Assembly (NCBI GenBank): GCA_037189785.1
Contig: JBBCIP010000173.1
Location: 1 to 51,815, forward strand
Length of the DNA stretch: 51,815 bases
Source of the DNA: Alphaproteobacteria bacterium
Lineage (GTDB): Bacteria > Pseudomonadota > Alphaproteobacteria > Sphingomonadales > Govanellaceae
Reading direction: 5' to 3'
The notes below the pieces were generated by a model. That model was not told the DNA's origin, did no database searches, and worked only from the letters and a program-made list of their open reading frames with translations. Of this stretch, positions 1 to 18,497 are shown in pieces. The translations under genes and the position numbers were made by a program. Each line of letters opens with the position of its first letter. The stretch's first letter is position 1.

Positions 1-2
1 AG

Positions 3-890
3 ATATCGATTCTAAAGGCCCTGCAAGACAAAGGCTATTCTGACGAAGCCTTGCGGTTGATGAACCGCTGGTTCGACGGCGTTGGTATGGATAACATGTC
101 GGCCTTGTTTGCCTATCGCAAAGATATGGTCGTCAAAGCCGGACGCGATGGCGGATGGTTCCGGATCAAAGGGGGAAGTTCACGCCTGACCGATGCCATG
201 GCAAAGGCTTTGCAGAATGAAGTTCATCTTGGCAAAGATGTGCGGGCCTTGACCACCAATGACGATGGCATAGAAGCACATTGTGCGGACGGCAGCGTTT
301 ATCGCGCCAAATATGCGATTGTCTCGATTCCCTATTCGGTGTTGCGGCATGTGAAGATCACGCCGGATCTTCCCCCGCTGCAAAAAGAAATCGTCAACAC
401 TTTGCCGTATAATCAAACCATCTTGATTAAATTCGGCATCAAAGCTCCGTTCTGGGAAAGCGATGGTCTGCCGCCCGGGCTTTACTCCGATACTTTTATC
501 GAACGGATCGTTGCAACAGCCGGACAAGATGGCCAGGTTCATATGTTGGATTGTTGGATCAAAGGCAGCGGCGCCGTGGCATTGGAACGCTATGATCTAA
601 AAACCGTTGGTCAAATGGCCTTGGCGGAAATGGAGCGTGCCCGCCCTGCGACCAAGGGTAAGCTTGAGGTTCTTGATGTCACCTCGTGGGGACAAAATCC
701 GTTTTCGCGCGGGTCGTACCATTTCTGGGGTGTGGGGCAATACAACCGCTATCGTGATCACTGGATCAAACCCCATGGCCGCCTGCGTTTTGTCGGCGAA
801 CATGCGGCGCAAATGTCCATGGGGATGGAAGGGGCCTGTGAATCTGCGGAACGCGAAGCACTGAATCTTGCGGACGTGATGGGAGCTTAA
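3..890 (+). CDS. Flavin monoamine oxidase / L-amino-acid-oxidase family FAD-dependent oxidoreductase (5' partial)
   Basis: Frame is open from position 3. Amino_oxidase-type motifs [14 protein letters not shown]-x-x-x-PFSRGSY, and C-terminal FAD motif GRLRFVGEH...[10 protein letters not shown]. Confidence 0.85.
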
Positions 891-891
891 C

Positions 892-1383
892 ATGGCTGAT
901 TCCGGCATGCTGACGCTGACTATAAACGGCAAGGATTATCAGGTCGAAGCCGACCCGGAAATGCCGTTGTTGTGGGCCGTTCGTGACTTGGTACAACTGA
1001 CCGGCACGAAATTCGGCTGCGGTGTCGGTCTCTGTGGGGCGTGCAGTTTATATGTGGATGGGGAATTGATCCGGTCGTGCTCGTTTGCTGTCGGTGATGC
1101 CGTAGGAACAGCCGTCACAACGATCGAAGGGTTATCAAAAGATCTCACGCATCCGGTCCAGCAAGCCTGGATCGCGGAACAAGTGCCGCAATGCGGGTAT
1201 TGTCAGTCGGGAATGGTCATGGCAGCGGCCAAGCTGCTGGAAGAAAATCCGGATCCAAGCGACGACGATATCGATGCGGCCATGACCAATATATGCCGGT
1301 GCGGGACTTATCCGCGGATTCGCAAAGGTATCAAAACGGCAGCGCGTCAAATCGCTGCATCCAATATTAAAAAGGCCTCCTAA
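892..1383 (+). CDS. (2Fe-2S)-binding small subunit of molybdenum hydroxylase type (IorA/CoxS-like)
   Basis: [14 protein letters not shown]...C and QCGYCQSG...NICRCGTY, the two 2Fe-2S motifs of the IorA/CoxS/XdhC family. Starts 1 nt after the upstream stop. Confidence 0.92.
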
Positions 1384-1399
1384 CTAGAAGGAAGACGTC

Positions 1400-2521
1400 A
1401 TGGTGTATCACCTCCAACACGAAATCATGCCACGCCAGACAAGTGACGAAGCGGCACGCTCTCGTTACGTTCTTTCGCTCAAGCGTCATTTGATGAAAAA
1501 TGTCCGCCCGGGCAATGTGCCGTCTTATGAGCATGTTGGCCGCGCGTTGTATCGTGAAAAATACGGTCGTGATCCGCAATCACGAAACGAAGTCCAAGAA
1601 GCTATGTTGATGACACCGCATTTTCAATTGTGGTCATCCTTGAACAGATCGTCGCAAGAGTTGATGTGGCGGACTGTCGGCGAAGCGATCTACCGCGACC
1701 TTGATCGTATGTCTGCGGCTGCGGAACGTCTGACCGGTGACCCGGCGAAAAAAGGATCGCTGACGCTTAACCCCGGTTTCGATCCTGTGGCGGATTATCC
1801 ACAGCATCATATTCACCTGCAACCCGAAGGCTATTTGCCGGAAGATGATGGTACCAGTATTGTTGCCGGTGCTTTTTATGAAGCCGGTGGTCGCATTTAT
1901 TCCATGGGCCGCGGGATGGAAGCGAAAGATAGCAAAGCCGGTGCGGTGATTGCATATTTGAATGAAACCCGCCCGGGTTGGCAACCGCGCCGGATGGTGG
2001 ATATCGGCTGTTCCGCCGGTGGCGGGTCGACCTGCTATCCCGAAGCGTTCCCGGATACCGAAGTGCACGCAGTCGATCTTGGGTCCAGCATGTTGCGCTA
2101 TGCCCATGCCCGGGCTGAAGCCATGGGCGCTCCGGTTCATTTTCATCAGGCCGATGGCGGCGCCACGCCGTTTCCGGACGGGTATTTCGATTTCATCATT
2201 TCTCATAACTTACTGCATGAAATTTCCGACGAAAAACGCAAACAGATCGCGCGTGAAACGTTCCGTTTGCTGGCGCCCGGCGGCATCGCCATTCACCAAG
2301 ATGTCGATATCCTAAACCGGCAACGGACGGTCGCCGAAGAAGCCGAGCGTGGCTGGGATTTGTTATTCAATAACGAACCCTATTGGGAAATGTATGCTGA
2401 TTGTGATTTGGCATCGGAATTGATTGCCGGTGGGTTCGATCCGGCCAACGTCAAAGAACAACGTATCAAGAAAACCGATGGTCCGGGGTTCTGGTATGCC
2501 TGGATTGCCGAAAAGAAATAA
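1400..2521 (+). CDS. Class I SAM-dependent methyltransferase with long N-terminal extension (paralog A)
   Basis: Motif I VDIGCSAGGG, VHAVDLG, PFPDGYFDFIISH, RLLAPGG. RBS GAAGGAAG upstream. Confidence 0.85.
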   Translation: MVYHLQHEIMPRQTSDEAARSRYVLSLKRHLMKNVRPGNVPSYEHVGRALYREKYGRDPQSRNEVQEAMLMTPHFQLWSSLNRSSQELMWRTVGEAIYRDLDRMSAAAERLTGDPAKKGSLTLNPGFDPVADYPQHHIHLQPEGYLPEDDGTSIVAGAFYEAGGRIYSMGRGMEAKDSKAGAVIAYLNETRPGWQPRRMVDIGCSAGGGSTCYPEAFPDTEVHAVDLGSSMLRYAHARAEAMGAPVHFHQADGGATPFPDGYFDFIISHNLLHEISDEKRKQIARETFRLLAPGGIAIHQDVDILNRQRTVAEEAERGWDLLFNNEPYWEMYADCDLASELIAGGFDPANVKEQRIKKTDGPGFWYAWIAEKK

Positions 2522-2524
2522 GCT

Positions 2525-4078
2525 CTAGCGGCGTTTCGATTGTGCCGATCGCGTCATGGTAATGAGTTCATACTCCGGGACGCGATTGGCAAGCCGCGTT
2601 CCGGAAATATCGGCGCGGTAACTGAAAAAGTCCAGCTGTTCGACCAGATAAATAGCCGGCGCACGATCGTGGAATTCGGCGGCAAGCGTGGCCAGAATTT
2701 CAGCCCGCTCCGGTTCGGGGGTTTCGGCCGCTTTTTCCATCAACGGTGTTAAATCTTCATCGCAATAAAACGGATTGCGCTTCAGGCACGAGAAATTTTC
2801 CATCGGTCGTAACACATCGTTATATGGTGCCGCAGACCACGACAAACTGAACGCGTCACTTTCCCATATGTTCGATAAGTAATTCCGCAAGAAGGTTGGG
2901 AACGGCATGGCGCGCATATCGACCTGAATACCGACTTGGCGCAAATCATAGGCCATGGCTTGGAAAATTTGCCCGTCCGCGGGCAGCGAATCGATCACAA
3001 CTTCGATACTGAGCGGCAGACCATTGGGATATCCCGCTTCTTTCAAAAGCGCGCGGGCTTTATTCGGATCGTAGGGGTAGGGTTTGATGGCCGGGTTATA
3101 GCCGTATGTGGTTTTTGACGCCGGTTGGCCCGAGGACACGGTAAACCCACGCAGCAATATTTCCGCCAATTGGTCTTTGTTGATGGCGTAATTCAGGGCT
3201 TGGCGCACGCGCTTGTCTTTAAGTGGAGAATCATCGGCGCGTTCGGTGCGCAACGCCAGCGCCATCACTTGCATCGATGGCTGGATCACGCTCGGGATGC
3301 CGCGCGCGTCCAACAGATCCATTTCATCAACGCCGGTTTTGGCCAAATCAACGTCGCCGGAAATCAACGCTTGCACGCGTGCCGCCGTTTCGGCCAGTTC
3401 GATGAATTCAAGCTTTTCGATAATCGGTTTGCGCCAACTTCTGGTGTTTGCGCTTAAGTAAGCGCGTCGGCGTTGTTCGCTCCATCGATCGAGATGATAG
3501 GAGCCGGTTCCCGATGGTTGGCGGGCAAATTCTTGGGGTCCCAACTCCGCCCAGGCTTTCGGTGCAACGATCGGCACCGATGTCATGCGTTTATCAAGAA
3601 TGGCATCCGGTGTTTTGGTGGTGATGACCAGGGTATGATCATTCTCGACAATGATCTGATCGAAATGGCGTAAGCGTGCGCCGATGACGGTGATTCTTCC
3701 CGCGGGCGATTGTAGCCAGCGTATGGTCGCGGCCACGGCGTCTGCATTAAACGGTTCACCGTTTGAGAAGCCGACATTTTTCCGAAGCTCAAAACGCCAA
3801 CTTAACGGCGTTGTTTGTTCCCATTTGGTGGCGAGCGCTGTGGTCACAGTGCCGTCGCTATCAAGCCGCGTCAGTCCGTCAAAAAGCGCCATCCACACAT
3901 AGCTGCTCGGCGTGCCGTCGGCCATGAACGGATTGCCCCAGCTTGGCGGCAGCGACGTGATGGCGACGCGCAGTTGCTCGGCTGAAACTGGAGCCATGCT
4001 TGAAAAACTGAACGTTGCAGCCAAAACCAAGCTTGGCCATTTGAATGCGGAGCCAAAGCGGCGCAGTGTGCGGATCAT
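2525..4078 (-). CDS. ABC transporter substrate-binding protein, family 5 (DppA/OppA-like)
   Basis: LFDGLTRLD...LATKW...WRFELRKNVGFSNGEPFNADAV signature and DKRVRQALNYAINK. Start reassigned to ATG 4078 (ATGA overlap with upstream stop; signal peptide MIRTLRR...VSA). Confidence 0.9.
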   Translation of the reverse strand: MIRTLRRFGSAFKWPSLVLAATFSFSSMAPVSAEQLRVAITSLPPSWGNPFMADGTPSSYVWMALFDGLTRLDSDGTVTTALATKWEQTTPLSWRFELRKNVGFSNGEPFNADAVAATIRWLQSPAGRITVIGARLRHFDQIIVENDHTLVITTKTPDAILDKRMTSVPIVAPKAWAELGPQEFARQPSGTGSYHLDRWSEQRRRAYLSANTRSWRKPIIEKLEFIELAETAARVQALISGDVDLAKTGVDEMDLLDARGIPSVIQPSMQVMALALRTERADDSPLKDKRVRQALNYAINKDQLAEILLRGFTVSSGQPASKTTYGYNPAIKPYPYDPNKARALLKEAGYPNGLPLSIEVVIDSLPADGQIFQAMAYDLRQVGIQVDMRAMPFPTFLRNYLSNIWESDAFSLSWSAAPYNDVLRPMENFSCLKRNPFYCDEDLTPLMEKAAETPEPERAEILATLAAEFHDRAPAIYLVEQLDFFSYRADISGTRLANRVPEYELITMTRSAQSKRR

Positions 4079-5076
4079 GATAAAAGACCCTTGGACTTGA
4101 GCGCGTCCGGGTAAAGACACGCGGATTTTTGCGTCGGTGTTGTTTGTCGTAAACTGGTTGGCGTTGTTGTGCAGTCCGGGGCTGCGACCGGGCAACGGCT
4201 GTAGAACGGGCAACCGACCGGTGGGTCAAATGGCGATGGCGGCTCCCCGGCGATGGCGCGAAATCCGTCTTCGGCAAAGGCGCTCGGGACCGGCTCCGGC
4301 GACGATTTGATTAAAGAAAATGTATAAGGATGTTGCGGATTGGCAATCACATCCTTGGTCGGGCCTTCCTCGACGACTTGGCCCGCATACATCACCACAA
4401 GCCGGTTGGCGAGATGATATAAAAGCGCCAAATCATGGGCGATGATCAACAAGCCGATGCCGCGTCGGGCGATCACGTCTTTAAAAACGGTAACGATTTG
4501 TGCCTGTACCGACACATCAAGCGCTGAGACGGGTTCGTCGGCAATCAAAAGATCCGGCGCGGTCGCAAGGGCGCGGGCAATGGCGATCCGCTGTCTTTGG
4601 CCACCCGAAAATTGATTAGGATATCGGTTCAGGGTCTCGGCCGGTAAACTGACATCGGCGACCAATTCGGCGGTACGGGCGCGAATGGCGTCGCGCGTGC
4701 CCATGCGATGCGCTTCCAACGGCTCCGCCAAAATTTCGCCAATAGTCAGGCGTGGGTTGAGGCTGCTGTAGGGGTCCTGGAAAATCAGTTGCATCCGCTT
4801 CCAGATTTCGCGGCGCGCGCGCAGACCCATATGGGTAATATCTTGATCTGCGAATTTGATGGTGCCGTCCGTGGGCGGATAAAGTCCCATGGCGGCTTTG
4901 GCGACGGTGGATTTGCCGGATCCGGATTCGCCGACCAGCCCGACGATTTCGCCGTTGTCGACATGAAGGCTGACCTTGCGTAGAGCATGCAGATCACGCC
5001 CGCCCACAGAAAAACGCACCGAAATATTTTCGATATCCAGAAGTCGGGTGGGTGTGGCGGTTACAGATGACGTCAT
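4075..5076 (-). CDS. Oligopeptide/dipeptide ABC transporter ATP-binding protein (OppF/DppF-like)
   Basis: Walker A GESGSGKS, FSGGQRQR, ADEPVSALD, HPYT and C-terminal GCPFYSRCP. Start at ATG 5076 (ATGA overlap). Confidence 0.93.
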   Translation of the reverse strand: MTSSVTATPTRLLDIENISVRFSVGGRDLHALRKVSLHVDNGEIVGLVGESGSGKSTVAKAAMGLYPPTDGTIKFADQDITHMGLRARREIWKRMQLIFQDPYSSLNPRLTIGEILAEPLEAHRMGTRDAIRARTAELVADVSLPAETLNRYPNQFSGGQRQRIAIARALATAPDLLIADEPVSALDVSVQAQIVTVFKDVIARRGIGLLIIAHDLALLYHLANRLVVMYAGQVVEEGPTKDVIANPQHPYTFSLIKSSPEPVPSAFAEDGFRAIAGEPPSPFDPPVGCPFYSRCPVAAPDCTTTPTSLRQTTPTQKSACLYPDALKSKGLLS

Positions 5077-6062
5077 GATGGAAGGCCTGGTTGCGTCGCG
5101 CGCCAACACGCAATGGAATGACCGCCGACATCCGTAAGCGGCGGAATACTCCGGCAGTCATCGGCTGCTGCAGGACAGCGCGGGCGATAAGAACAGCCAT
5201 CAAACCGTTCCGTCGGTTTGGGTGGGTCGCCGGGAATGGGGGCAAAGGCATGTTCGGTGCTGAAGCGCGGTACCGCCGCCATCAAAGCCTTGGTATAGGG
5301 ATGAACGGGGGCGGTCAGAATCTGTTCCGCAGTGCCTGTTTCAACAACGCGGCCATAATACATCACGGCAATACGGTTGCATATTTGCGCCGCAGCGCCA
5401 AAGTCGTGGGTGACCAAGATCACCGATCGTTTCGTTGCCGCCTTTTTGATAAGCGCCAACACTTGCATGCGCACGGTCGGGTCCAACGCCGTTGTCGGTT
5501 CATCGGCAATCAACAAGGACGGATTGTTGATCCCGGCCAAGGCGATCACCACGCGCTGTCTTTGGCCGCCGGATAATTGATGCGGATAATTGTCGATGCG
5601 TTCGGCAGGCGCGGGCAGGGCCACATCGGCCAAGGCTTTGATGGCAATATCTCGGGCGACTGCTTTGCTGACCTTTTGATGACGCAAAACTGATTCCGTC
5701 AACAAATCGCCGATCCGCCGCACCGGATTTAAGCTGCTGAACGGATCTTGAAAAATCATGCCGATATCACGGCCGCGAATCCGGCGCATGTCGTTTTCTG
5801 TGGCGTGCACCAGATCCTGACCCAAGAAATTGATCTTGCCGCTTTTAATACGGGCATTGGGCGGCAATAGCTTCATCAGACTAAGAACGCTCAGCGATTT
5901 GCCCGACCCGGATTCGCCGACTAGGCCCAGCACATCGCCTTCGTGCAAGGTGAACGAAATATTGTCGAGCACCGCGCGATCGCCGTCTTTGGTCGGGAAC
6001 GCCACGCTCAGATTTTGCAGCGCAAGTATCGGGCCGGTGTTTGTCATAGCGGTGTTGTTCAT
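5073..6062 (-). CDS. Oligopeptide/dipeptide ABC transporter ATP-binding protein (OppD/DppD-like)
   Basis: GESGSGKS, YPHQLSGGQRQR, ADEPTTALD, HPYT, Cys-rich tail. ATGA overlap with the upstream gene. Confidence 0.93.
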   Translation of the reverse strand: MNNTAMTNTGPILALQNLSVAFPTKDGDRAVLDNISFTLHEGDVLGLVGESGSGKSLSVLSLMKLLPPNARIKSGKINFLGQDLVHATENDMRRIRGRDIGMIFQDPFSSLNPVRRIGDLLTESVLRHQKVSKAVARDIAIKALADVALPAPAERIDNYPHQLSGGQRQRVVIALAGINNPSLLIADEPTTALDPTVRMQVLALIKKAATKRSVILVTHDFGAAAQICNRIAVMYYGRVVETGTAEQILTAPVHPYTKALMAAVPRFSTEHAFAPIPGDPPKPTERFDGCSYRPRCPAAADDCRSIPPLTDVGGHSIACWRATQPGLPS

Positions 6063-6916
6063 AGCGATCTTTGGCTCCGGCCTCTGAGCAGGGTGGATAT
6101 GCCATCACCAATCAAGTTTGCCGATACGACCACCAGCACAATGGCGCCCGCCGGGACCAGCATCATCCACGGAGCTTGGAACAAGAACGACCGGCTATCG
6201 GCCAGCATGTTGCCCCAGGTCGACGAATCGATGGGCGCGCCGATGCCGAGGAACGACAACGCACTTTCCGCGATCAGCATGTCGGCAAAATGAAACGCGG
6301 TTGTGGCAAGCAAGGAGGGACGCAGTGCCGGTAACACATGACGGAACAGAATACGCCATTGCTTCACGCCCATAAAACGCGCGGCGATGACGTAATCTTT
6401 CTCAAGAATCGCCAAGCTTTCCGCATAGACGATCCGGGCAAACACCGGCCAGGTCAGAAGCCCCAGCACCAACACCAGTGACATGAAGCCTTGACCAATG
6501 ATCGCAATCAAGCAGATTGCGGCGACAAGGCTTGGGAACGACATCGTGAGGTTGATGATTTGTAAAATAACGCGGCGCGGCCAGCCGGATTGATCGGCGG
6601 CAAGAAGTCCCAAGGGGGCGCCGATCGCCAGTGACAGCGCGGTCGATAAAATGGCTGCGGCGAACGACCATTTGAATCCGACAGCCATGCGCGCCAAAAG
6701 ATCGCGGCCAAGGTGATCGGATCCGAGCAGATGAGATAGTGAGCCCGGTTTTTCAAAACGGTCATAAAGATTGATGACATCGGCCCCCGGCGCGCCAAGC
6801 AGCGGCAGCACAAACGGCAGAAGTCCCATGATCACCAGAATACCAAGCCCGATCACCAAGCCTGTGGGCAATGCTGTCCGATCTTTGCGGCGGGATGCGG
6901 TTACGGTCGCGCTCAT
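6059..6916 (-). CDS. ABC transporter permease (OppC/DppC-like)
   Basis: HLLGSDHLGRDLLAR, EAA-loop YVIAARFMG, AESALSFLGIG, WGNML. Confidence 0.93.
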   Translation of the reverse strand: MSATVTASRRKDRTALPTGLVIGLGILVIMGLLPFVLPLLGAPGADVINLYDRFEKPGSLSHLLGSDHLGRDLLARMAVGFKWSFAAAILSTALSLAIGAPLGLLAADQSGWPRRVILQIINLTMSFPSLVAAICLIAIIGQGFMSLVLVLGLLTWPVFARIVYAESLAILEKDYVIAARFMGVKQWRILFRHVLPALRPSLLATTAFHFADMLIAESALSFLGIGAPIDSSTWGNMLADSRSFLFQAPWMMLVPAGAIVLVVVSANLIGDGISTLLRGRSQRSL

Positions 6917-7866
6917 GACGATACCCGGATGCGCGGATCAAGGAAGGCGATGGCGATATCGGTCAAGGCGTTCACGATGAATACGAAGATCGAGATGACG
7001 ACGGCCAAGGCCTGAACCACGGGAAAATCGAGCGTAAGGGTCGATTGGATCAACAAGCGCCCCAGCCCGGGCCAGGCGAAAATGCTTTCGATCACCACGA
7101 CGCCTGAAATCAAAAACGAAAATTGTGCGCCGACCAAAGCGATCGAGCCCAGCAAGGCGTTCGGCAAAACGTGGCGCCATAAAATGAATTGTGGTCCGGC
7201 GCCGATAGCGCGGGCGGTGCGTACGTAATCTTCGTTCATGGCTTCGGCGACGTTGGCCGCCGTGATGCGAGTCAGTTTTGGGACCAAGAATGATCCCAAG
7301 GCAATCGTCGGCAAAACCCAGTTGGACAGGCGATCATATCCCAACGCCGGCAACCACCCGAGATCGACCGCAAAAATCTGTACCAGCACCAAGGCGACCA
7401 CAAATCCGGGCACCCCTTGCATGATAAAGACGGACCAAGAAAACACTTGGCGTGACGACCGCTGCGGATCTGCGCCCCACCAGGCGCCAAGCGGCACGGA
7501 TACAAGGATGGTGAAGCCCATGGCCAGGAAGGTCATCAGCAGCGTCGCTGGGACTGCGCCGACAACAACGGTCAACGCATCGCGTCCTGTGGCTAGGGAT
7601 GTGCCGAAATCCAGATGCAGCACGTTGTACAGATAGATCCCGAACTGCGTCAGTAACGGTTTATCCAAACCATGAAAGGCGCGAATCTCGGCCAGCATTT
7701 CAGGTGTCGCGTCTTGCCCGGCAAGAACAACGGCTGGATCTCCCGTGAGGCGTAAAAGGAAAAAAAGCAACGTCAGCAAAGCCAGGATCAAGACCAAAAG
7801 ATCAAATCCGCGCTTACCGACGATGCTTCCAACCTTACCGAGCTTTTTGGCGTAAGTGCTGTGCAT
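6913..7866 (-). CDS. ABC transporter permease (OppB/DppB-like)
   Basis: GLDKPLLTQF, DFGTSL, EDYVRTARAIG, ESIFAWPGLGRL, DFPVVQ. Confidence 0.93.
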   Translation of the reverse strand: MHSTYAKKLGKVGSIVGKRGFDLLVLILALLTLLFFLLRLTGDPAVVLAGQDATPEMLAEIRAFHGLDKPLLTQFGIYLYNVLHLDFGTSLATGRDALTVVVGAVPATLLMTFLAMGFTILVSVPLGAWWGADPQRSSRQVFSWSVFIMQGVPGFVVALVLVQIFAVDLGWLPALGYDRLSNWVLPTIALGSFLVPKLTRITAANVAEAMNEDYVRTARAIGAGPQFILWRHVLPNALLGSIALVGAQFSFLISGVVVIESIFAWPGLGRLLIQSTLTLDFPVVQALAVVISIFVFIVNALTDIAIAFLDPRIRVSS

Positions 7867-7872
7867 AGCTTA

Positions 7873-7892
7873 TTGTATCATTATAGATACAA
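7873..7892. promoter_or_regulatory. Palindromic operator-like site TTGTATC-ATTATA-GATACAA just upstream of the ABC operon
   Basis: Perfect 7-bp arms with a 6-bp spacer, 6 bp from the oppB-like start. A related palindrome lies at 15654-15671. Confidence 0.55.
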
Positions 7893-7921
7893 ATATCCAC
7901 TTGTTTGTGATGGGGGCGATG

Positions 7922-7959
7922 GCAGGGACGACCGACGGCATTCTGTCCGCCGTCCCTAC
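7922..7959 (-). terminator. GC-rich hairpin just after the nitrilase-family stop (terminator or mRNA stabiliser)
   Basis: Minus-strand arms GTAGGGACGGC / GTCGTCCCTGC (11 bp including 2 G-U). No clear U-tract. Confidence 0.35.
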
Positions 7960-7966
7960 AAGGGAT

Positions 7967-9100: not shown

Positions 9101-9192
9101 GCTCCCGAATGAAAGGCGAGTGGTTGGCTGAAATCAGATTAAATGGCTTTACGGCCATTTTTTAGGGTTTCTGTCTTCCGCAAACCATATTG

Positions 9193-9208: not shown

Positions 9209-9379
9209 TTAATATGATTTATCGCAAGGTGGTCATCAAACGATCACGCCCGGGATGCTGCGTTCAACGTCTTTGGGGCCGTGCCGTTATGGTGCTGAAA
9301 AGGGTGCGTCTTCGCCATCCATTCGCCATTTTCCCCACCTTCTATATGATAATCCCTTAAACGGTTGGGAGACGGGATA

Positions 9380-10528: not shown

Positions 10529-10546
10529 TTTCCGAGGTTCCTCATA

Positions 10547-11698
10547 ATGACGAGCATGGATAAAAAGCGGGATAGTGAACGCGGCGTCCATGCCGTTATG
10601 CCGCGGCAAACAGCAGCAGAAGAAGCGCGCTTCGAATTTTCCAAAGCGCTTAAAACGGCGCTTCGAAACGACTTCAAGTCACGTCTGCGCGCTCGCTATG
10701 ACGACATCCATAAACCGGCATTTGAGGCAGAGGCGGGTCACGCGCCGGAAACAGCCGATGATGTCGATGCGTTGATGAGCGAAGATACGCTTTATCAATG
10801 GTGGAGTGCGCTGCTCCGGGCGCAGCAAGAAGGCTATGTTCAAAACACGACGCTCTGTGTGGAACGCCAACTTGATGAGCTCAATGAGAAGTGTCGGACT
10901 ATTGCGAAAAACCCGCAGTTCGGCAGCCTGCGCTTGGATCGGTCTGTCGCTGTTCCCTACTATCAGAAAGACGTCGATATCCATTGCGTTCCTGGCTCTT
11001 ACTTCTTTGAACGCAGCGCCGACGATGTCGGCCAAGGGGCGCGGTCTGATCTTGGGGCCTTTATTTTTTCCTTAGGACGTCATGGCCCCTATAACGAAGA
11101 CAAGGGACTCTGCGGCGTTAAATTCATCGAAGATAGATTTCCGGATCTCAAGCCGCGCCGCATTTTGGATATGGGCTGCACCGTCGGGCAATCGACCTTG
11201 CCCTATGTCACGGCATTTCCAGATGCCGAAGTGCATGCCATAGATTTGGCCGCGCCCTGTTTGCGGTATGGTCACGCCCGCGCAGAATCATTGGGCAAGG
11301 CCGTGCATTTTTCACAAGCCAATGCCGAGCAGACAACATTCCCTGACGGCAGTTTCGATCTTGTGGTGTCGCATATTATGCTGCACGAAATTTCCCTGAA
11401 CGCGCTGAATAATATTCTGCGTGAATGTCACCGCTTGTTGCGTCCGGGCGGGGTGATGCTGCATGTGGAGGTTCCGATCCGACCGCAAGGTGTTTACGAG
11501 CGCTTCATGGCCAATTGGGATAGCGCCAATAACAACGAGCCGTTTTGGCGCACATTGGCCGAATTGGATCTGATCACGGCAGCCGAGAATGCCGGTTTCC
11601 CGCGTGAAGCAGTATTTGAAACAATCACCGACACCGCGTTCGCAAAAGCCGGCGGATGGTTGGTATTCGGTGCGCGTAAAATGGATGCAGCATCATGA
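10547..11698 (+). CDS. Class I SAM-dependent methyltransferase with long N-terminal extension (paralog B)
   Basis: ILDMGCTVGQS, VHAIDL, FPDGSFDLVVSH, RLLRPGG. Aligns end to end with 1400..2521. Confidence 0.87.
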   Translation: MTSMDKKRDSERGVHAVMPRQTAAEEARFEFSKALKTALRNDFKSRLRARYDDIHKPAFEAEAGHAPETADDVDALMSEDTLYQWWSALLRAQQEGYVQNTTLCVERQLDELNEKCRTIAKNPQFGSLRLDRSVAVPYYQKDVDIHCVPGSYFFERSADDVGQGARSDLGAFIFSLGRHGPYNEDKGLCGVKFIEDRFPDLKPRRILDMGCTVGQSTLPYVTAFPDAEVHAIDLAAPCLRYGHARAESLGKAVHFSQANAEQTTFPDGSFDLVVSHIMLHEISLNALNNILRECHRLLRPGGVMLHVEVPIRPQGVYERFMANWDSANNNEPFWRTLAELDLITAAENAGFPREAVFETITDTAFAKAGGWLVFGARKMDAAS

Positions 11699-12048
11699 GC
11701 GATCTGAAAAAAGCGCCCGCGGTGCCGCTCGGCGCACGTCCTGTTTTTCTGAAAAATGCGGATGATGAGCGATTGCTGGCGATGATTATGGCGGTCGCAT
11801 CGGAAGTTTCGGTCCTTTATGATCGCATTGATCGCTTGGAACGTGTGGCGGCGGAAAAGCCAAGCTTCAGTTTGGATGATCTTGCGGCTTATGAATTGAC
11901 GCCGGACGCCCGGGCGGCCCGCGCCGAATGGATGCAAGGATATGTGACGCGGCTGCTCAGAATTTTTCAGGAAACTCTTGATGATGCGGATGGCGGTGCA
12001 AGAACTGCGGCCTATAAAGACTTAATGGAACGTATGGCCAAGCCATGA
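11695..12048 (+). CDS. Small helical hypothetical protein (paralog of 15751..16068)
   Basis: ATGA-coupled to methyltransferase B. Ungapped similarity to the 15751 ORF supports coding status. Confidence 0.8.
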   Translation: MSDLKKAPAVPLGARPVFLKNADDERLLAMIMAVASEVSVLYDRIDRLERVAAEKPSFSLDDLAAYELTPDARAARAEWMQGYVTRLLRIFQETLDDADGGARTAAYKDLMERMAKP

Positions 12049-12101
12049 TGGCGGTTAAGAATAATTTGGCATGTACGTAACGAGATGGAACACAACAGAC
12101 G

Positions 12102-12998
12102 ATGTTTACAGTAGACGGTGATCCGCAACCCTTTGCCAAAGGCGATATCTTGATCGCAGCGACGGCGATCGACGATAGCAATATCGATTTTCGCAATTTG
12201 CGTGGGCCCGGTCGTATTCTTCATTTTGATAAAGAGTTCAATCGTAAATCGGTGTTGTGGACCGATCATGATGGCTTGGTTGTCAATCTTGCGGTTGATC
12301 CCCGGACGGATATTTTATATTCCGTCGATCCGACCGGACGTCATGTGGTGCCGTTCGGTCCTGATGCTGCACGCTTGCCAGATGTTGACTATTTGCCTGC
12401 GCGCCCGCTTGGGGCTTTGGTTTTTACGGGCAACGGCGACGCTTATATCGGTGTCCATTCCGCGCGCGGCCCGGTACCCGATGATAAATATGGTGCCGCA
12501 AAGTTATTCCGCTTTTCAACTGCGGATCAATCGGTCACCGCTATTGACGTCGATGTTGACGGCGGGCACACGGGTTGGCTCGGGGTTAATTACATGGCGC
12601 TCCATCCCAATGGGCGCGTGTTGTACATGGCATCCGAAGGTGGTCATCGTATTCTGCGATATGATCTGGACGCGGCAAAAATGCTGCCGGATTATGTCGC
12701 TTATGGAGACCAAGATCGGGACCGCACGTTTGGTTTTGCGTTCCTTGACGATCAAAATGTCGTGATGGTGACGGGCGCCGATCTGGTCATCCGTGATGAA
12801 GCGGCACAAGAAACAGTGCGCATACACTTGGGCGATAAGGGCTGGACCCGGGTTATTCCTGCTCACGATAAAAAAACGGCCTTTGTAATCAATTTCCTCG
12901 AAGGGAGATTGCAACGCAGACGTATTAATGACGGAGCGTTATTGTTCGAATATAATCTGGGCCGTAAATGTTCGATGTGTGGCTTGGTTGAGTATTGA
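12102..12998 (+). CDS. Hypothetical beta-propeller-like protein
   Basis: Repeating ~45-aa blade-like units (LAVDPRTDILYSVD, LVFTGNGDAYIG, MALHPNGRVLYMASEGGHRILRYDL, FAFLDDQNVVMV). Co-oriented within the operon. Confidence 0.65.
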   Translation: MFTVDGDPQPFAKGDILIAATAIDDSNIDFRNLRGPGRILHFDKEFNRKSVLWTDHDGLVVNLAVDPRTDILYSVDPTGRHVVPFGPDAARLPDVDYLPARPLGALVFTGNGDAYIGVHSARGPVPDDKYGAAKLFRFSTADQSVTAIDVDVDGGHTGWLGVNYMALHPNGRVLYMASEGGHRILRYDLDAAKMLPDYVAYGDQDRDRTFGFAFLDDQNVVMVTGADLVIRDEAAQETVRIHLGDKGWTRVIPAHDKKTAFVINFLEGRLQRRRINDGALLFEYNLGRKCSMCGLVEY

Positions 12999-13060
12999 TG
13001 GAGCAGAACGGCTCAATTGGTATTGGGAATGACAGTCTTCTCAGATGTTTGGAGAACAAG

Positions 13061-14653
13061 ATGACAGGATTCTTTAAAACCGCTGCTGTGGCGCTTGGTC
13101 TTGCCGTGGTCGGTTTTTCGACGCCGATGATGACGGTATCTGCCGATGCCCAATCATATTTGCGGCGTGGTACGGCGAGTGAACCGCCCTCTATCGATCC
13201 GCATTTGGCCGCGGGTGATTCGTCGTCTGTCATTATTGATGACTTGTTCGTTGGGTTGATGTCGTCCGGCAAAAACGGCGAGCTTATTTATGCGGTAGCC
13301 AAGAGCCATGAACTCAAGAAAGACGGCGTTACCTATGTGTTCCAAATTCGCCCCGGCTTAAAATGGTCCGACGGCAAAAAATTGGACGCGGCCGACGTGG
13401 TTTATTCTTTCCAACGGTTGATGAACCCGGCCACGGCAGCGCGCTATGCCGGTAACCTTTATATGATCAAGAACGCTATGGACGTTAATACCGGAAAGCT
13501 TCCGTTAGATAAGCTTGGTGTCCGTGCCGTTGACCCATTGACCGTTGAAATTACGTTGGAACAACGTACGCCTTATTTCCTTGAAGTGTTGCGGTCCAAC
13601 GCGGCAGTGATGGTGCCGCAACATGCAATTGCCACCCACAACACGACCTGGACCCGGGCCGGACGCATGGTCAGCAATGGGGCCTATAAATTGACGGAAT
13701 GGGTGCCGAATACGCAATTACGCATGACCCGCAACGAGAATTATTACAACGCGTCGTCCGTTGCGATTGGCGAAGTGGTTTATTATCCTGCGTCCGATCT
13801 CGGCACGATGTTGAAACGGTATCAGGCCAATGAACTGGATATCATTTTCAACTTCCCACCAGAACAGGTTGAAACTGTGCAGAAGCAGTTCAAGGCTGAC
13901 CTGCGGGAAGTCCCGGATTACGGGTTGTTCTATTGGCTTTTGAACGGAAAGAACGGTGCTCTCAAAGATCCACGCGTGCGCAAGGCCTTGGCGATTTCGC
14001 TTGATAAAAAAGCGATCACGCAGCGTCTTTTGAAGGGGGCTGTTGAACCGGCTTGGGGTGTTGTTCCGTCCGGGTTTGATCAATATCCGTCCAAAGTCAC
14101 GGATTATGACAAAGTACCCTTGAAGACACGGCAAGATGAAGCCCGCAAACTTTTAGCCGCTGCGGGCTATAGCAAAGCCAAGCCGTTGGAAGTTGAGATT
14201 CGTTTTGACAGCCGCGAAGAGCCGCGACAAATCGCCGTAGCTATGGGATCCATGTGGTCGGCCATTGGTGTCAAAGCAAAAATGCGGACCAGCGATTTCC
14301 GCTCGTTGTCGGCAGATGTGGCCAAGGGTGCTTTCGAGGTCGCCCGATATCAGTGGTTTGCGCCGTATCCGGATCCGGTGACCTTCGCCAACTTGTTGCG
14401 CGGTGGATCACGGACCAATCACTCAGGCTATAGCAATGCCAAAGTAAATGCTTTGTTGCTGCAAGCGGACGAAGAAACCGATCAAAAGAAACGTATGGAT
14501 CTTATGAGCCAAGCCGAAGCCCTGGCGATGGAAGATCATGCCGTTATTCCAATCTATTATACCGTAGCGCGGCGTTTGGTGAAACCACGGGTTCAGGGAT
14601 GGAACGACTTCCCGGGTGGTAAAGTGAAGTCGGAATATCTGTCGCTGAAGTAA
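13061..14653 (+). CDS. Peptide ABC transporter substrate-binding protein (OppA-like)
   Basis: EPPSIDP, DGVTYVFQIRPGLKWSDGKKLDAADVVYSFQRL, VSNGAYKLTEW, DPRVRKAL. Start ATG 13061 with GGAG RBS and a signal peptide. Confidence 0.92.
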   Translation: MTGFFKTAAVALGLAVVGFSTPMMTVSADAQSYLRRGTASEPPSIDPHLAAGDSSSVIIDDLFVGLMSSGKNGELIYAVAKSHELKKDGVTYVFQIRPGLKWSDGKKLDAADVVYSFQRLMNPATAARYAGNLYMIKNAMDVNTGKLPLDKLGVRAVDPLTVEITLEQRTPYFLEVLRSNAAVMVPQHAIATHNTTWTRAGRMVSNGAYKLTEWVPNTQLRMTRNENYYNASSVAIGEVVYYPASDLGTMLKRYQANELDIIFNFPPEQVETVQKQFKADLREVPDYGLFYWLLNGKNGALKDPRVRKALAISLDKKAITQRLLKGAVEPAWGVVPSGFDQYPSKVTDYDKVPLKTRQDEARKLLAAAGYSKAKPLEVEIRFDSREEPRQIAVAMGSMWSAIGVKAKMRTSDFRSLSADVAKGAFEVARYQWFAPYPDPVTFANLLRGGSRTNHSGYSNAKVNALLLQADEETDQKKRMDLMSQAEALAMEDHAVIPIYYTVARRLVKPRVQGWNDFPGGKVKSEYLSLK

Positions 14654-14674
14654 GTGATTTCCGTACGACATGAA

Positions 14675-14707
14675 AAAGGGCTATCCGAGATGATCGGATA
14701 GCCCTTT
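14675..14707. terminator. Probable bidirectional intrinsic terminator
   Basis: Perfect 14-bp stem AAAGGGCTATCCGA / TCGGATAGCCCTTT with a 5-nt loop, between convergent genes. Confidence 0.85.
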
Positions 14708-14740
14708 GATTTATGGCGATTTGCTCAAAGCGATTTGAGG

Positions 14741-15490
14741 CTAAGAACGGTTTAAGAATGTGTGGTGCTCGTAATGATCGGCGCGATAAAAGGTTTCAAG
14801 TCGTTCTATGGGACGATGTTGTTTATCAAACACCAGCATGCGGATGCGCATCAACGGAACCCCGACCTGGACCTTCAGGCGTGTTGCTAGGTTACTGTCG
14901 GCCAGTGTGGCGCCAATAACTTGGTCCGCTCCCAGAATATCAAACCCTTTTTCTTCCAGAATGGTGATGGTGGGGCTGGTGGTCAAGTCTTCGGGCTTAA
15001 TGTCTTTCACTAAGCTTGGCGGAAAGTAAAGTTCAGTAAAGCCGATTGGCGATCCATCCATCACGCGGGTGAACGAGGCGCGGATGACAGGACTATCGAC
15101 CGGCACGCGCAAATCTTTGGCCACCGCAGCGTCGGCAATGGTGTTGGATACCACGACATTTTCGAGTGTGGATCTGGCGCTCAACCGCTGCAATTTACGG
15201 ATCAGCTGATCCATATCGCCAACATTCGGAGCCGCCGCCAAGTCTTCGACCACGAATGTGCCGCGGCCCTGAATACGATCGATCAACCCTTCGCGCACCA
15301 GCATATCAACCGCATTCCTGAGCGTGATGCGGGACACCTCGAACATGGTGCACAGGCTGCTTTCGGATGGTAGGCGGGCGCCCGGTTGATAAACCCCGGT
15401 TTGTATCCAATGGCGCATGATGGAATAGACTTGCGCATAGCGCGGGACATGCAGGTCGGGGTTAAGGGTGGATACGCTCGCGTCGCCCAT
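14741..15490 (-). CDS. GntR-family transcriptional regulator (HutC/UTRA subfamily)
   Basis: PRYAQV...YQPGARLPSESSLCTMFEVSRITLRNAV...GRGTFV wHTH, plus UTRA-like C-terminus (PIERLETFYRADHY). Start placed at ATG 15490. Confidence 0.92.
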   Translation of the reverse strand: MGDASVSTLNPDLHVPRYAQVYSIMRHWIQTGVYQPGARLPSESSLCTMFEVSRITLRNAVDMLVREGLIDRIQGRGTFVVEDLAAAPNVGDMDQLIRKLQRLSARSTLENVVVSNTIADAAVAKDLRVPVDSPVIRASFTRVMDGSPIGFTELYFPPSLVKDIKPEDLTTSPTITILEEKGFDILGADQVIGATLADSNLATRLKVQVGVPLMRIRMLVFDKQHRPIERLETFYRADHYEHHTFLNRS

Positions 15491-15642
15491 CTGGTCTGCC
15501 TGTATCTTGAGTTTTGACTGGATATAGAATGGGCTGATTAGTCCTATTCTGATACGTTTTATTGCCTTTTTGACACCCAAAAAAGCACCGCAATAATAGC
15601 GCAAGGCCTTGTTTAAGCATAGACCTTATTATACGATGCGGA

Positions 15643-15671
15643 TATCATTATAATGTATTAATTATAATACA
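15643..15671. promoter_or_regulatory. Overlapping palindromes CATTATAATG and TGTATT-AATTAT-AATACA (candidate GntR autoregulatory operator)
   Basis: In the divergent gntR / small-protein intergenic region. TATCATTATA is identical to 7876-7885. Confidence 0.5.
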
Positions 15672-15750
15672 AAATACTCATGGGCATAGCCTGGGCTTGG
15701 ATGTATCATCCGGTTCATACCTGCCAGTTCCTATCTGAAGGAGTCGTGAC

Positions 15751-16068
15751 GTGGATAAATTGGATGCGGTAAAGAAGGTTCTTGCCACTCTGCCTGGCCC
15801 TAGACCTCAATTCTTCCAAGATCCGTCCATGGACCAGGTGATCGATATGACCGTGGCTTTGGCCGGGGAAGTTGCGGTTTTGTATGAACGCTTGGATAGT
15901 CTCGAGCGGTTGATCGAAGCGGCCGGTATCGTCAAACAGTCTGATTTGAATACATTTCAGCCGGATCAACACGCCTTGGCCGAGCGCATGAAATGGAACG
16001 AAGCCTATGTGCTGCGTGTCTTCCACAGCGCCTCCGCTAAGGACTTTGGCGAAGGCCAAACGGAATAG
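15751..16068 (+). CDS. Small helical hypothetical protein (paralog of 11695..12048)
   Basis: GTG start with AAGGAG RBS. Shares G-x-RP-x-F...M-x-x-A-x-A-x-EV-x-VLY-x-R-x-D-x-LER...R-x-x-W-x-x-x-YV-x-R with the 11695 ORF. Confidence 0.8.
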   Translation: MDKLDAVKKVLATLPGPRPQFFQDPSMDQVIDMTVALAGEVAVLYERLDSLERLIEAAGIVKQSDLNTFQPDQHALAERMKWNEAYVLRVFHSASAKDFGEGQTE

Positions 16069-16092
16069 CCTTCGTCCCATATTACGAGCCCC

Positions 16093-17442
16093 TTATATTG
16101 TGGAAGTTGGTTTTTTACGCTCCGCAGATCGATACGTTGCTGCAGACTGATGCAGCGATAGTCCAGCGGTTTCTTTTAAGAAAAACAAAGCAACAGCACC
16201 GACGGCGCAGGCGACCATCATGGAATAGGCCGGCATCAACGGATCGCCGGTTACGCGGATCAACACGCTGTTAAAGGCCGGTGCCGTGCCGCCAAATAGC
16301 GATGTGGCAATATTATAGGAAATCGCAAAGCCTGCGAACCGCACATAAGTTGGAAACATGGCTGGAAACGTAGCCGAAATTGTTGCGAGCTGAGGTGCAT
16401 ACAAAGCCCCCAACAAAACGAAACCGATTACTGCCCCGATGAAGCCTGTGGACATCAGCATGTAAAGCGGGACGACAAAAACAAACAAGCCCACGAGCGA
16501 AAATGCCCACAACGGTTTGCGACCGCATTTGTCCGATAGCGCACCGGCAACAGGCAGCAAGATCATCATGAACATCATGCCGATGATCGGTACCATCAAT
16601 GCTTGATCCGGTGTTAGATTAAGACGCCGCTGAAAATATGTCGGCATATAACTCAGCAATGTGTAATTGACCACATTCAGGGCAGTGACAAGGCCGCCCA
16701 TGATCAACAATGGCTGCCAATAGTTTTTACATATATAAATTAAAGACGGCGACCGGCGCGGCTGTTGGGGACTATGGGCAAAGTTTTCCAAGAACACAGG
16801 TGTGTCGTCCATGCGAGCGCGCAAATATAATCCGATCAATCCCATCGGCCCGGCAATTAAAAAAGGAACTCGCCATCCCCAGTCGTGCATAGCCTCGTGA
16901 CCAAGCCATAAGGAGAAACTCAGCATCAACAATGCGCCTAATGAAAATCCGGCGAGGGTGCCGACTTCAAGAAAACTGCCGTAAAATCCGCGTTTCTTAT
17001 CGGGTGCATATTCTGCCATGAAGGTGGCGGCGCCGCCGTATTCCCCGCCGGTGGAGAACCCTTGGATCATCCGCAAGATCACCAGTATAATTGGCGCTGC
17101 GATCCCAATGCTGTTATAGGATGGGATAAGGCCGACGCAAAACGTTGCCCCAGCCATCAATAAAATCGTCATCCCGAGCACAGATTTGCGGCCCAGGCGA
17201 TCACCCAATGGCCCCCAAAAAATTCCCCCCAATGGTCGGATCAGAAAAGAAACGGCAAAGGTTCCAAGCGCGAAAAAGACCGCTTGATCCAGATCGCCCG
17301 GAAATAAAGCGGCCGAGATATAGGTGACACCATAAGCATAGATGCCGTAATCAAACCACTCTGTAGCATTGCCGATGGCTGATGCAAGAATAGCGCGTTT
17401 TATAAGGGGTTTCGGAATTTCTGTATGTTCAGGCATAGACAT
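16093..17442 (-). CDS. MFS transporter, metabolite:H+ symporter family (ProP-like)
   Basis: IGNATEWFDYGIY, RPLGG...GDRLGRK, RMIQGFSTGGEYGGA, WGWRVPFL; about 12 hydrophobic segments. Confidence 0.92.
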   Translation of the reverse strand: MSMPEHTEIPKPLIKRAILASAIGNATEWFDYGIYAYGVTYISAALFPGDLDQAVFFALGTFAVSFLIRPLGGIFWGPLGDRLGRKSVLGMTILLMAGATFCVGLIPSYNSIGIAAPIILVILRMIQGFSTGGEYGGAATFMAEYAPDKKRGFYGSFLEVGTLAGFSLGALLMLSFSLWLGHEAMHDWGWRVPFLIAGPMGLIGLYLRARMDDTPVFLENFAHSPQQPRRSPSLIYICKNYWQPLLIMGGLVTALNVVNYTLLSYMPTYFQRRLNLTPDQALMVPIIGMMFMMILLPVAGALSDKCGRKPLWAFSLVGLFVFVVPLYMLMSTGFIGAVIGFVLLGALYAPQLATISATFPAMFPTYVRFAGFAISYNIATSLFGGTAPAFNSVLIRVTGDPLMPAYSMMVACAVGAVALFFLKETAGLSLHQSAATYRSAERKKPTSTI

Positions 17443-17741
17443 GAATTCCCATTGTCCTCGTGCTATTCAAAGCGGATTTTGGGGGCTTTTCTAAAATCGG
17501 CATAACTTGGGTTTTCCTTAATTATAGAATTCCGTTGTTTGTTGCGTATGAATGCGGTGATTCAAAAACAACAGTTTATGGCGGGTTGAATGCCATATAA
17601 CGAGAGCCATGGTGATCGGTAGCCCAGGGGTGAAGGGGAAACTATAAGCATAGCTGAGCATATTTCAACCCAGTCTTCATTATGACATGCTTGACAATGA
17701 TATTGAGATGCCGAAATCATAAGGCGGATGCTTTGTAAAAG

Positions 17742-18497
17742 ATGGGGGAAACAGTGATTTCACGGCGGGAGTTTAATACTTTAACGGGGCTTGGGTTGGG
17801 CGGACTTGTGACCGGCGCGGCCACGGATTTGATCGCCGCGGAACGTCCGATAGGCAAGCTGGCTAAAGGCAAACCGGTGCTTGATCATATCGTTTGGGCC
17901 GTGCCTGACTTGGAACAAGGCCGTGCGTATTTTGAAGATCTTACGGGTGTGGCTTCGGTATCTGGGGGCAAGGCACCGGGCCGGGATAAAAGCCACAATG
18001 CTTTGGCGGCTTTAGGGAATGGCGCATATTTTGAGATTTTCTCACCTGTTATCGGTATGAAGGGCGATAATTGGCATCACTTGGTCCAAGACGGTAAGCC
18101 GAAACTTGTCAGTTATTGTTTGCGTGTGGAAGATGAATTCGATGCCTTGCAACGCAATGCTGTAAACGCAGGGTTTAAGCATGACACACCCTATGCTATG
18201 GGCCGTGTACGACCAGACGGCAATCAGCTCAACTGGAAATTGTTGAATATTTCGGGATCTGGGGTCGATAATAGCTTACCGTTTTTTATCGATTGGCTCG
18301 GATCGAAACCGCATCCATCGGAAGATTCACCCGCCGGTGTGACCTTGACGCGGTTTGAAGTTGGTCATCCCAATGCGGCGGAGGTGACGCGTGTTTTTAA
18401 AGCGCTCGATATCGACCTGCCTGTTGTCTCAGCCAAGACACTGTCATTCGCCGCACATCTTGAAACACCTAAGGGAACGGTGGTTCTTACAAGTTGA
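17742..18497 (+). CDS. VOC (glyoxalase-like) protein with twin-arginine signal peptide
   Basis: LDHIVWAVPDL...HNAL...YFEI...LPFFIDW...HPS (Glyoxalase_3-like). N-terminal SRREF followed by a hydrophobic stretch. Confidence 0.8.
   Translation: MGETVISRREFNTLTGLGLGGLVTGAATDLIAAERPIGKLAKGKPVLDHIVWAVPDLEQGRAYFEDLTGVASVSGGKAPGRDKSHNALAALGNGAYFEIFSPVIGMKGDNWHHLVQDGKPKLVSYCLRVEDEFDALQRNAVNAGFKHDTPYAMGRVRPDGNQLNWKLLNISGSGVDNSLPFFIDWLGSKPHPSEDSPAGVTLTRFEVGHPNAAEVTRVFKALDIDLPVVSAKTLSFAAHLETPKGTVVLTS

Follow-up and report, generated by a model that had tools for sequence, protein, structure and literature searches.

Open reading frame (ORF) and domain annotation of a 51,815-nt contig from an alphaproteobacterial genome (GenBank assembly GCA_037189785.1, contig JBBCIP010000173.1; the whole stretch is called "the window" here) showed that positions 1–16068 carry sixteen co-conserved genes. 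They include two S-adenosylmethionine (SAM) methyltransferase genes (MT1 and MT2), two genes for small partner proteins (S1 and S2), a Rieske oxygenase gene, a nitrilase-fold gene, and an Opp/Dpp-type importer. The nearest named homologs of the window proteins are those of Govanella unica. In what follows, G000 is the source genome, G001 a relative in the same genus, and G004 a relative in the same family but another genus. The features, with the strand where it applies, are as follows.

3–890, + strand: flavin amine oxidase (PF01593), C-terminal 295 aa, truncated by the contig start; 68% identical to the G001 ortholog
892–1383, + strand: 2x[2Fe-2S] small subunit of a molybdenum hydroxylase/oxidoreductase (PF00111 and PF01799), both Cys motifs intact
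1400–2521, + strand: methyltransferase MT1, with no adjoining small gene (domain and paralog comparison)
2525–4075, − strand: SBP1, an Opp/Dpp-type binding protein (PF00496), likely start at 4075
4075–7866, − strand: Opp/Dpp importer, two ABC ATPases and two permeases, 72–83% identical to the G001 and G004 orthologs
7874–7891: palindrome TGTAT-N8-ATACA, 5' of the permease genes, conserved in G001 and G004; candidate regulator site
7967–9100, − strand: nitrilase-superfamily protein (PF00795) with Glu95-Lys169-Ser217 (Ser codon at 8450–8452)
9188–9220: footprint in the divergent nitrilase/Rieske promoter, motif TGTnnTAATRWTAW at 9199, near-identical in G001 and G004
9380–10528, + strand: Rieske non-heme-iron oxygenase of the VanA_C type, with Rieske CxH...CxxH and DxxHxxxxH motifs
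10547–11698, + strand: methyltransferase MT2, class I SAM fold (predicted local distance difference test score, pLDDT, of the model 91), conserved SAM motifs
11695–12048, + strand: small partner protein S1 of an unnamed family, 4-bp overlap with MT2 (pairing counts)
12102–12998, + strand: SGL/lactonase-like beta-propeller (via the G001 ortholog)
13061–14653, + strand: SBP2, a second, OppA-like binding protein, likely start at 13061
14741–15490, − strand: GntR-UTRA regulator, HutC type (domain match)
15647–15671: AT-rich footprint in the divergent GntR/S2 promoter, ATAATGTA core conserved; perfect palindrome at 15654 only in G000
15751–16068, + strand: small partner protein S2, right-hand end of the conserved cluster (synteny and pairing)
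16093–17442: ProP-like MFS transporter, outside the cluster
17742–18497: twin-arginine VOC protein (Glyoxalase_3), outside the cluster

All sixteen genes occur in the same order in G001 and G004, with identities of 64–89%, and both loci diverge beyond S2; the conserved unit ends at position 16068. The full cluster spans approximately 52 kb in G001, and the window carries its right-hand 16 kb. The stretch first flagged amounts to about one third of the real cluster. The remaining orthologs in the fragmented G000 assembly lie on five contigs (C434, C105, C110, C455, and C403). Read outward from the shared genes, the left arm of G001 and G004 encodes an FGE-domain protein, a molybdenum-cofactor large subunit with a twin-arginine (Tat) signal, an MFS transporter, a second Opp set, and an SDR protein; then a heme-oxygenase-like diiron protein, an aldehyde dehydrogenase, a DUF3526 ABC exporter, and a TonB receptor; further out, a LeuCD-like pair, a class III CoA transferase, an HMGL-like lyase, an isochorismatase, and two PuuE-like proteins; and at the far end, two TonB receptors, an Amdase-like protein, an FAD monooxygenase, a second aldehyde dehydrogenase, and a second GntR-UTRA regulator. 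The separate leuC of G000, apart from the LeuCD-like pair of the cluster, is on C98, beside a gene that we take to be rplS.

Co-occurrence of the homologs in other genomes, a check named beforehand in the initial annotation, was borne out by this synteny and by rearranged copies elsewhere: in two Steroidobacteraceae (Gammaproteobacteria; L068 and L094), partially in L053 and L054, and in the metagenome loci L215, L216, L218, L220, and L223, among which L218 carries lower-pathway genes as well. L052 is the same locus as that of G004 and does not count separately. Among 80 metagenome loci seeded with the Rieske gene, seven held a full-length homolog at ≥60% identity, and all of these had the cluster context except one, whose contig is too short to judge. 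The stretch had been described as an "island," which does not hold in the mobile sense: neither a tRNA nor an Rfam match was found in the window, no integrase was among the annotated genes, the GC content is close to the genome mean of 0.524, and the gene order is shared by two relatives. The Tat-signal VOC protein had been counted in the gene set; the gene is real but, like the MFS gene at 16093–17442, which had gone unmentioned, was not found in G001 or G004 with these queries and is absent from the syntenic loci, and the two genes are lower in GC (0.497 versus 0.538). The segment 16093–18497 is probably a later insertion.

MT1 and MT2 share 35% identity over 340 aa, and S1 and S2 share 34% identity over 86 aa (E = 1e−15); each family has exactly two members in G000. 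Two paralogous SAM methyltransferases and two paralogous proteins of about 110 aa without a known family, as first annotated, are thus present. Profile searches of 401 evenly sampled Pseudomonadota genomes found MT and S in the same seven, with identical copy numbers (2, 1, 1, 1, 1, 3, and 2). In the neighborhoods of the best 80 of at least 566 GTDB loci, with adjacency scored on domain coordinates, S adjoined MT on the same strand in 78 of 85 MT genes, mostly with gaps of <50 bp and often with an overlap. Two of the remaining genes were cut by contig ends, and five had no adjacent S; of these five, one was an MT1 whose cluster, like that of the window, holds an orphan S2 at its opposite end, and in another case an S lay 1.5 kb away. 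In L216 and L217, MT2 and S1 were jointly missing. MT and S are firmly a fixed one-to-one pair, a link absent from the initial annotation, and MT1 likely pairs with S2. The simplest reading of this pairing is a dedicated MT:S complex, which we consider likely from the gene arrangement. The distances within the two families also correlate (Spearman 0.71), but this was not counted as co-evolution because linked genes correlate anyway, and the lack of MT–S fusions among the longer proteins searched is weak evidence.

The S family comprises 1,779 representatives at 50% identity (E ≤ 0.001). S1 and S2 had no Pfam or NCBIfam match, and a 55-sequence profile gave no PDB match below E = 0.65. The atlas label "PglX" for S1 was rejected, having no Pfam support; the other S1 matches were unnamed clusters. 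Some members of the family (P0200, P0146, P0144, and P0249) include long Lys/Ala-rich, histone-H1-like tails, and P0185 has an unrelated N-terminal extension of approximately 125 aa. The MT family is expanded in some genomes, with five matches in G028 and eight in G034. In Nostoc (L055–L088), MT+S is a two-gene unit between a gene that is presumably trpB-like and genes for CAP-domain and rhodanese proteins. Elsewhere (L035, L147, L149, and L151), HapK/RedY-like proteins (PF11639), DUF1838 and DUF3598 proteins, and a recurrent unnamed membrane protein of approximately 225 aa lie beside MT+S and the Rieske subfamily.

The MT2 model (pLDDT 91) has a class I SAM fold preceded by an N-terminal helical region of approximately 135 aa. 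Structural matches cover residues 135–381 (best Z 17.6), and the N-terminal region is barely covered. The features of class I SAM methyltransferases, namely a Rossmann-like fold, motif I, and an acidic residue after beta-2, were all found: D208-x-G-C-x-x-G and D233 are conserved in MT2, and 54–55 of 55 MT sequences retain motif I and the beta-2 acid intact. No NCBIfam model reached its cut-off with MT. Beyond the SAM motifs, H146, H280, E281, N329, E331, and W334 are invariant.

The nitrilase-fold protein was initially described as lacking Cys. This proved right for the nucleophile, where the protein has Ser217, and wrong for the protein as a whole, which has five Cys residues elsewhere. The position was located by counting back six residues from the PE motif, to the site of the Cys in AmiE and DCase; the register was set by the AmiE "NYPE" segment, and E95 and K169 align to both enzymes. 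The same six-residue count found Cys in three G000 paralogs and Ala in one (C370:3018–4088). Glu95, Lys169, His94, and Ser217 were invariant across all 121 sequences compared, namely the window protein and its 120 best matches out of 1,039 homologs, and 30 further nitrilase loci had Ser in 25 cases and Thr in 2, with 3 unread. Ser at the position of the Cys nucleophile is firmly a family-wide trait, which the initial annotation did not note. The canonical nitrilase triad is Glu-Lys-Cys, and no description of a Glu-Lys-Ser triad was found in the literature searched. The modeled fold (pLDDT 88), a nitrilase-superfamily alpha-beta-beta-alpha CN-hydrolase fold, is closest to aliphatic amidases and formamidases (versus 2uxy: Z 31.0, root mean square deviation 2.6 Å, 274 residues aligned), and we predict from these features that the protein is a serine-type amidase. 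Its profile matched all seven MT genomes among 40 relatives, versus 4 of the 33 others, and 26 of 40 further MT genomes. A second Ser subfamily ("ASEEILYPE"), with Arg in place of Lys, is linked to red chlorophyll catabolite reductase (RCCR). G456 has 14 nitrilase-profile matches, and several such proteins in related loci have twin-arginine signals.

An alternative compatible with any pathway is that the methyltransferases use SAM without methyl transfer, as in RdmB-like proteins, and/or that the Ser protein is a non-catalytic binder. The six invariant MT residues outside the SAM motifs would fit it, as would the oddity of methylation in catabolism, the Ala paralog in G000, and the use of engineered Cys-to-Ser mutants of the nitrilase family (e.g., 5h8k/5h8l) as inactivated forms; those two mutants are, we assume, inactive. 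Nevertheless, the near-universal conservation of motif I and the beta-2 acid argues against loss of methyl transfer, and Glu and Lys are invariant alongside Ser, whose only variants (2 of the 27 read) are Thr, also a hydroxyl residue. We regard this alternative as unlikely, while giving it real weight.

The remaining enzymes of the window bear out most of the initial gene assignments. The Rieske protein has Rieske and VanA_C domains, its closest solved relatives include SxtT/SxtDIOX, DdmC, and NdmA, which are alpha3-type oxygenases, and no beta-subunit gene lies beside it, in agreement with its assignment to this type. Near its more distant relatives, as near MT loci, genes for DUF1838 (10 cases), Ser-nitrilases, or the FAD oxidoreductase are often found. 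The flavin amine oxidase was confirmed as a gene cut by the contig start; its full-length G001 ortholog has 473 aa and a twin-arginine (RR) signal, and its best PDB matches are putrescine, L-amino-acid, and monoamine oxidases, at E ~ 1e−30 only. The 2Fe-2S subunit had been called "lone," which is not the case because the large molybdenum subunit (MoCoBD_1/2) belongs to the cluster: it is encoded two genes upstream of the amine oxidase in G001 and G004 and at C403:252–2540 in G000. The beta-propeller is supported through the features and structure of its G001 ortholog (65% identical), which groups with SGL/lactonase propellers (TM 0.84–0.88). The complete Opp/Dpp system was found as a five-gene set, together with the second binding protein (SBP_bac_5). 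SBP1 has only distant PDB relatives (AccA, YliB, NikA, HbpA, and DppA). No gene for a binding protein accompanies the second Opp permease set (on C403); SBP2, which adjoins this set in L068 and L094, likely serves it.

A shared upstream motif had also been noticed, and strong conserved footprints do exist in G000, G001, and G004, in five promoter regions and the gap between the nitrilase and permease genes. The motif TGTnnTAATRWTAW, which was defined after the sites were seen, has three of its seven genome-wide matches in the cluster contigs, which make up 0.9% of the genome, and four matches in the cluster of each relative (G001 and G004). The palindrome TGTAT-N8-ATACA has three of its six perfect genome-wide matches in the cluster contigs (7874, 15654, and C105). 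The one GntR(UTRA) gene called in the window is present, and with its left-arm counterpart it makes two GntR-UTRA proteins that are candidate regulators; we infer that they may bind the motif and palindrome sites.

The evidence on the substrate comes largely from other contigs and other genomes. At the family level, the left-arm genes suggest that an imide ring is opened and the product deamidated, hydrated, and cleaved in a CoA-dependent step, and hydratase, CoA transferase, and lyase chemistry of this kind acts on alkyl-maleates. The best PDB match of the cluster PuuE-like protein is PuuE 3cl6, and PMC11424739 and PMC9304392 describe PuuE-fold proteins that act as cyclic imidases; PMC7318184 gives alkyl-maleimides and hematinic acid as breakdown products of chlorophyll and heme. 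A ring-opening or lower-pathway gene, or a hydantoinase, lies within 10 kb of 28 of 56 non-cyanobacterial MT loci. These genes support the uptake and breakdown of an N-heterocyclic compound, as initially suggested; of the two substrate guesses made then, "tetrapyrrole-derived" gains comparative support, and "alkaloid-like" remains the main rival.

The comparative support centers on RCCR. The aldehyde dehydrogenase of the cluster is 50–52% identical to those encoded directly downstream of RCCR in cyanobacteria, and this subfamily is distinct (49–61% identity, then a gap to ≤37%). The order RCCR, Ser-nitrilase, dehydrogenase occurred in 5 of the 10 cyanobacterial RCCR loci inspected; one other had RCCR and the dehydrogenase, and four had neither neighbor. 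In Limnoraphis (L078), the RCCR, Ser-nitrilase, and dehydrogenase genes surround MT+S. Among 62 MT-bearing genomes, with phyla assigned here, RCCR was found in 4 of 51 Pseudomonadota, versus none of the 401 sampled evenly, in 2 of 7 cyanobacteria, and in none of 4 others. In a cyanobacterial sample, with the genome at the sample center left out, it was found in 3 of 6 MT-bearing and 5 of 194 other genomes; Fisher tests across such genomes overstate significance, since kin are not independent. Cyanobacterial RCCR genes also lie near tetrapyrrole-type genes in L162:9745–16210 (presumably acsF, heme oxygenase, and hemN) and L169:4704–10723 (presumably hemE), and beside ICL-family lyases in L162 and L163. 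We had taken Anabaena alr5007 and all5024 to belong to the cyanobacterial cluster, which was not confirmed. PMC4788461 labels alr5007 only as Lls1-like.

With moderate confidence, we propose that the cluster serves to import and break down compounds derived from tetrapyrroles, namely bilins, chlorophyll catabolites, or pyrrole fragments of these. This is the best explanation of the observed gene content, synteny, MT/S pairing, invariant Ser, and promoter footprints, from which we infer the substrate, every reaction, and MT–S binding. The compound would be taken up by the TonB-dependent receptors, oxidized in the periplasm by the Tat-exported flavin oxidase and the molybdenum oxidoreductase, and imported by the two Opp/Dpp systems. 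The Rieske oxygenase might then act like plant PAO and cleave an inter-ring bridge to give formyl and lactam ends; the formyl group would be oxidized by the aldehyde dehydrogenase, and the Glu-Lys-Ser enzyme would hydrolyze an amide or formamide. In what is the weakest step of the scheme, MT1:S2 and MT2:S1 may methylate intermediates, with each methyltransferase likely in a complex with its own small partner. The PuuE-like imidases could open the resulting alkyl-maleimide, the isochorismatase-family amidase could release ammonia, the LeuCD-like hydratase could make an alkylmalate, and the class III CoA transferase and HMG-CoA-lyase-like enzyme could split it to pyruvate and acyl-CoA. Put in full, the proposal is a complete, undescribed route that mineralizes chlorophyll- or heme-derived tetrapyrroles to pyruvate, acyl-CoA, and ammonia, with an obligate two-subunit methyltransferase and a natural Glu-Lys-Ser branch of the nitrilases; in that full form we advance it only tentatively and think it more probably wrong than right in some part.

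Several observations weigh against a tetrapyrrole substrate or an integrated route. At E ≤ 0.001, the Rieske protein has only the Rieske and VanA_C domains, the PaO domain (PF08417) was not found, and no ferredoxin or reductase gene for it was recognized in the cluster. Neither SBP1 nor the sole right-arm receptor compared is especially close to heme-binding families. RCCR had no match in G000 (94% complete), in G001, or in the genome of L052, although the same search does find it in other genomes, and it was missing from 56 of the 62 MT-bearing genomes searched. The flanks of three of the four proteobacterial RCCR loci show little of the cluster gene set. The window Ser-nitrilase is only approximately 27% identical to the RCCR-linked one, and the nitrilase tree does not join the two Ser clades, although its branches are long and it does not settle whether they share an origin. 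Among 43 metagenome loci of at least 6 kb with distant Rieske relatives, MT was present in six. The RCCR-linked dehydrogenase subfamily also occurs in an unrelated context in G000, the maleamate/maleate-type lower pathway is also used in pyridine degradation, and we know of no established role for methylation in such a catabolic route. Finally, about 20 Nostoc loci have MT+S in isolation, surrounded by housekeeping genes; therefore, the pair can function without the rest of the cluster. The second G000 dehydrogenase just mentioned (C47:9121–12470) follows a gene pair that we take to be UbiD/UbiX-like.

The strongest competing explanation of the pathway, which we hold to be unlikely, is a non-tetrapyrrole N-heterocycle (a pyridine, pyrrolidine, indole alkaloid, or similar) degraded through a substituted maleamate in the manner of nicotine or nicotinate, with MT:S capping or detoxifying an intermediate. 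The absence of an RCCR match in G000 suits it, and the gene set resembles that of nicotine pathways (Tat amine oxidase, molybdenum hydroxylase, FAD monooxygenase, and aldehyde dehydrogenases). At the family level, so do the Amdase/isomerase-like protein and the isochorismatase-family amidase, whose PDB matches are 26st, 4l07, and 3ot4, the last two of which we take to be maleamate amidases. However, nicotine-pathway oxidases (E = 1e−13 to 1e−19) are no closer matches to the amine oxidase than putrescine or L-amino-acid oxidases are, and no 2,5-dihydroxypyridine dioxygenase or deformylase was recognized among the scanned cluster genes (no search of the genome was aimed at them). Degradation of such a heterocycle would also leave unexplained the RCCR-linked dehydrogenase subfamily, the RCCR enrichment, and the same gene set in cyanobacteria.

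Less probable still is a mosaic in which a maleimide or imide lower pathway, uptake genes, and an MT+S cassette with a function of its own (e.g., methylation-based detoxification) are simply co-regulated neighbors. The isolated Nostoc pairs and the varied MT+S neighbors elsewhere speak for it, as do the cluster copies without MT2+S1 (L216 and L217), the differing contexts of up to eight MT paralogs per genome, and the presence of two GntR regulators and two motif types. By contrast, half of the non-cyanobacterial MT loci (28/56) have a lower-pathway or ring-opening gene within 10 kb, one motif precedes genes of both arms in three genomes, and the core block recurs across classes. That the cluster instead makes and exports a methylated metabolite or metallophore and then re-imports it is very improbable: the methyltransferases, the heme-oxygenase-like diiron enzyme, the PvdO-like FGE-domain protein, and the ABC-2/DUF3526 exporter are typical of biosynthetic clusters, but no scaffold-building enzyme (nonribosomal peptide synthetase, polyketide synthase, or ligase) was recognized, and the three TonB receptors, two Opp importers, and the deamination, hydration, and CoA-lyase set point to catabolism.

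Outside the cluster, window positions 20480–29864 hold a separate catabolic run with a linalool dehydratase/isomerase-like protein (PF18566; paralog on C317), SCO1, an acyl-CoA ligase, an aldehyde dehydrogenase, a TonB receptor, and a zinc alcohol dehydrogenase split into two ORFs (23505–23939 and 23982–24629).

About 10^12 kg of chlorophyll is synthesized and broken down every year (PMC7318184), and no bacterial genes that consume its ring-opened products were described in the literature searched. The cluster is also present in a cultured relative, which makes the question of pigment consumption directly testable. Whatever the substrate, the large unnamed S family (1,779 clusters), tied one-to-one to MT across Proteobacteria, Cyanobacteria, and others, is a biochemical target, and the more than 1,000 nitrilase-fold proteins with serine in place of the textbook catalytic cysteine are a second one.

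The initial annotation could match the set to no named pathway, and we likewise found no characterized pathway that fits among the protein profiles and literature searched (paper supplements were not covered): the architecture of receptor, importer, oxygenase, and lower pathway is of a known kind, but the cluster is undescribed in that literature. Its nearest counterpart for the predicted upper steps is plant PAO/RCCR (phyllobilin) breakdown, with which it shares a Rieske protein that has the Rieske center and mononuclear iron motifs and no beta-subunit gene. It differs in having no PaO domain and no RCCR in the G000 cluster or genome, and in combining importers with a predicted path down to pyruvate and ammonia; plants stop at detoxifying and storing the products. 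RCCR-like genes (PF06405) are reported from cyanobacteria (PMC2716323), and in our loci relatives of two cluster genes form operons with them. Like cyclic-imide/maleamate catabolism (BpIH and HxnM), with its maleamate amidase, maleate hydratase, and citramalyl-CoA lyase chemistry, the left arm brings together PuuE-like, isochorismatase, Amdase-like, LeuCD-like, CoA transferase III, and HMGL-like genes; the cluster adds TonB receptors, a Rieske oxygenase, MT+S pairs, and the Ser-nitrilase, and its substrate is a predicted one. MT resembles the Trm112-activated class I SAM enzymes (e.g., PDB 6f5z) in appearing to need a partner of about 110–120 aa. The two cases differ in that S shows no detectable sequence similarity to Trm112 or to any Pfam or PDB family, that its gene accompanies a single MT family one-to-one, and that MT has an N-terminal helical extension of approximately 135 aa. 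The window nitrilase family shares with AmiE/AmiF (2uxy, 2plq, 2e2k, and 5g3o) the fold (Z 29–31), the catalytic Glu and Lys, and the spacing to the PE motif, but at 16–18% identity it is set apart by Ser in place of Cys and by an invariant His before the Glu (HEFP rather than xPE).

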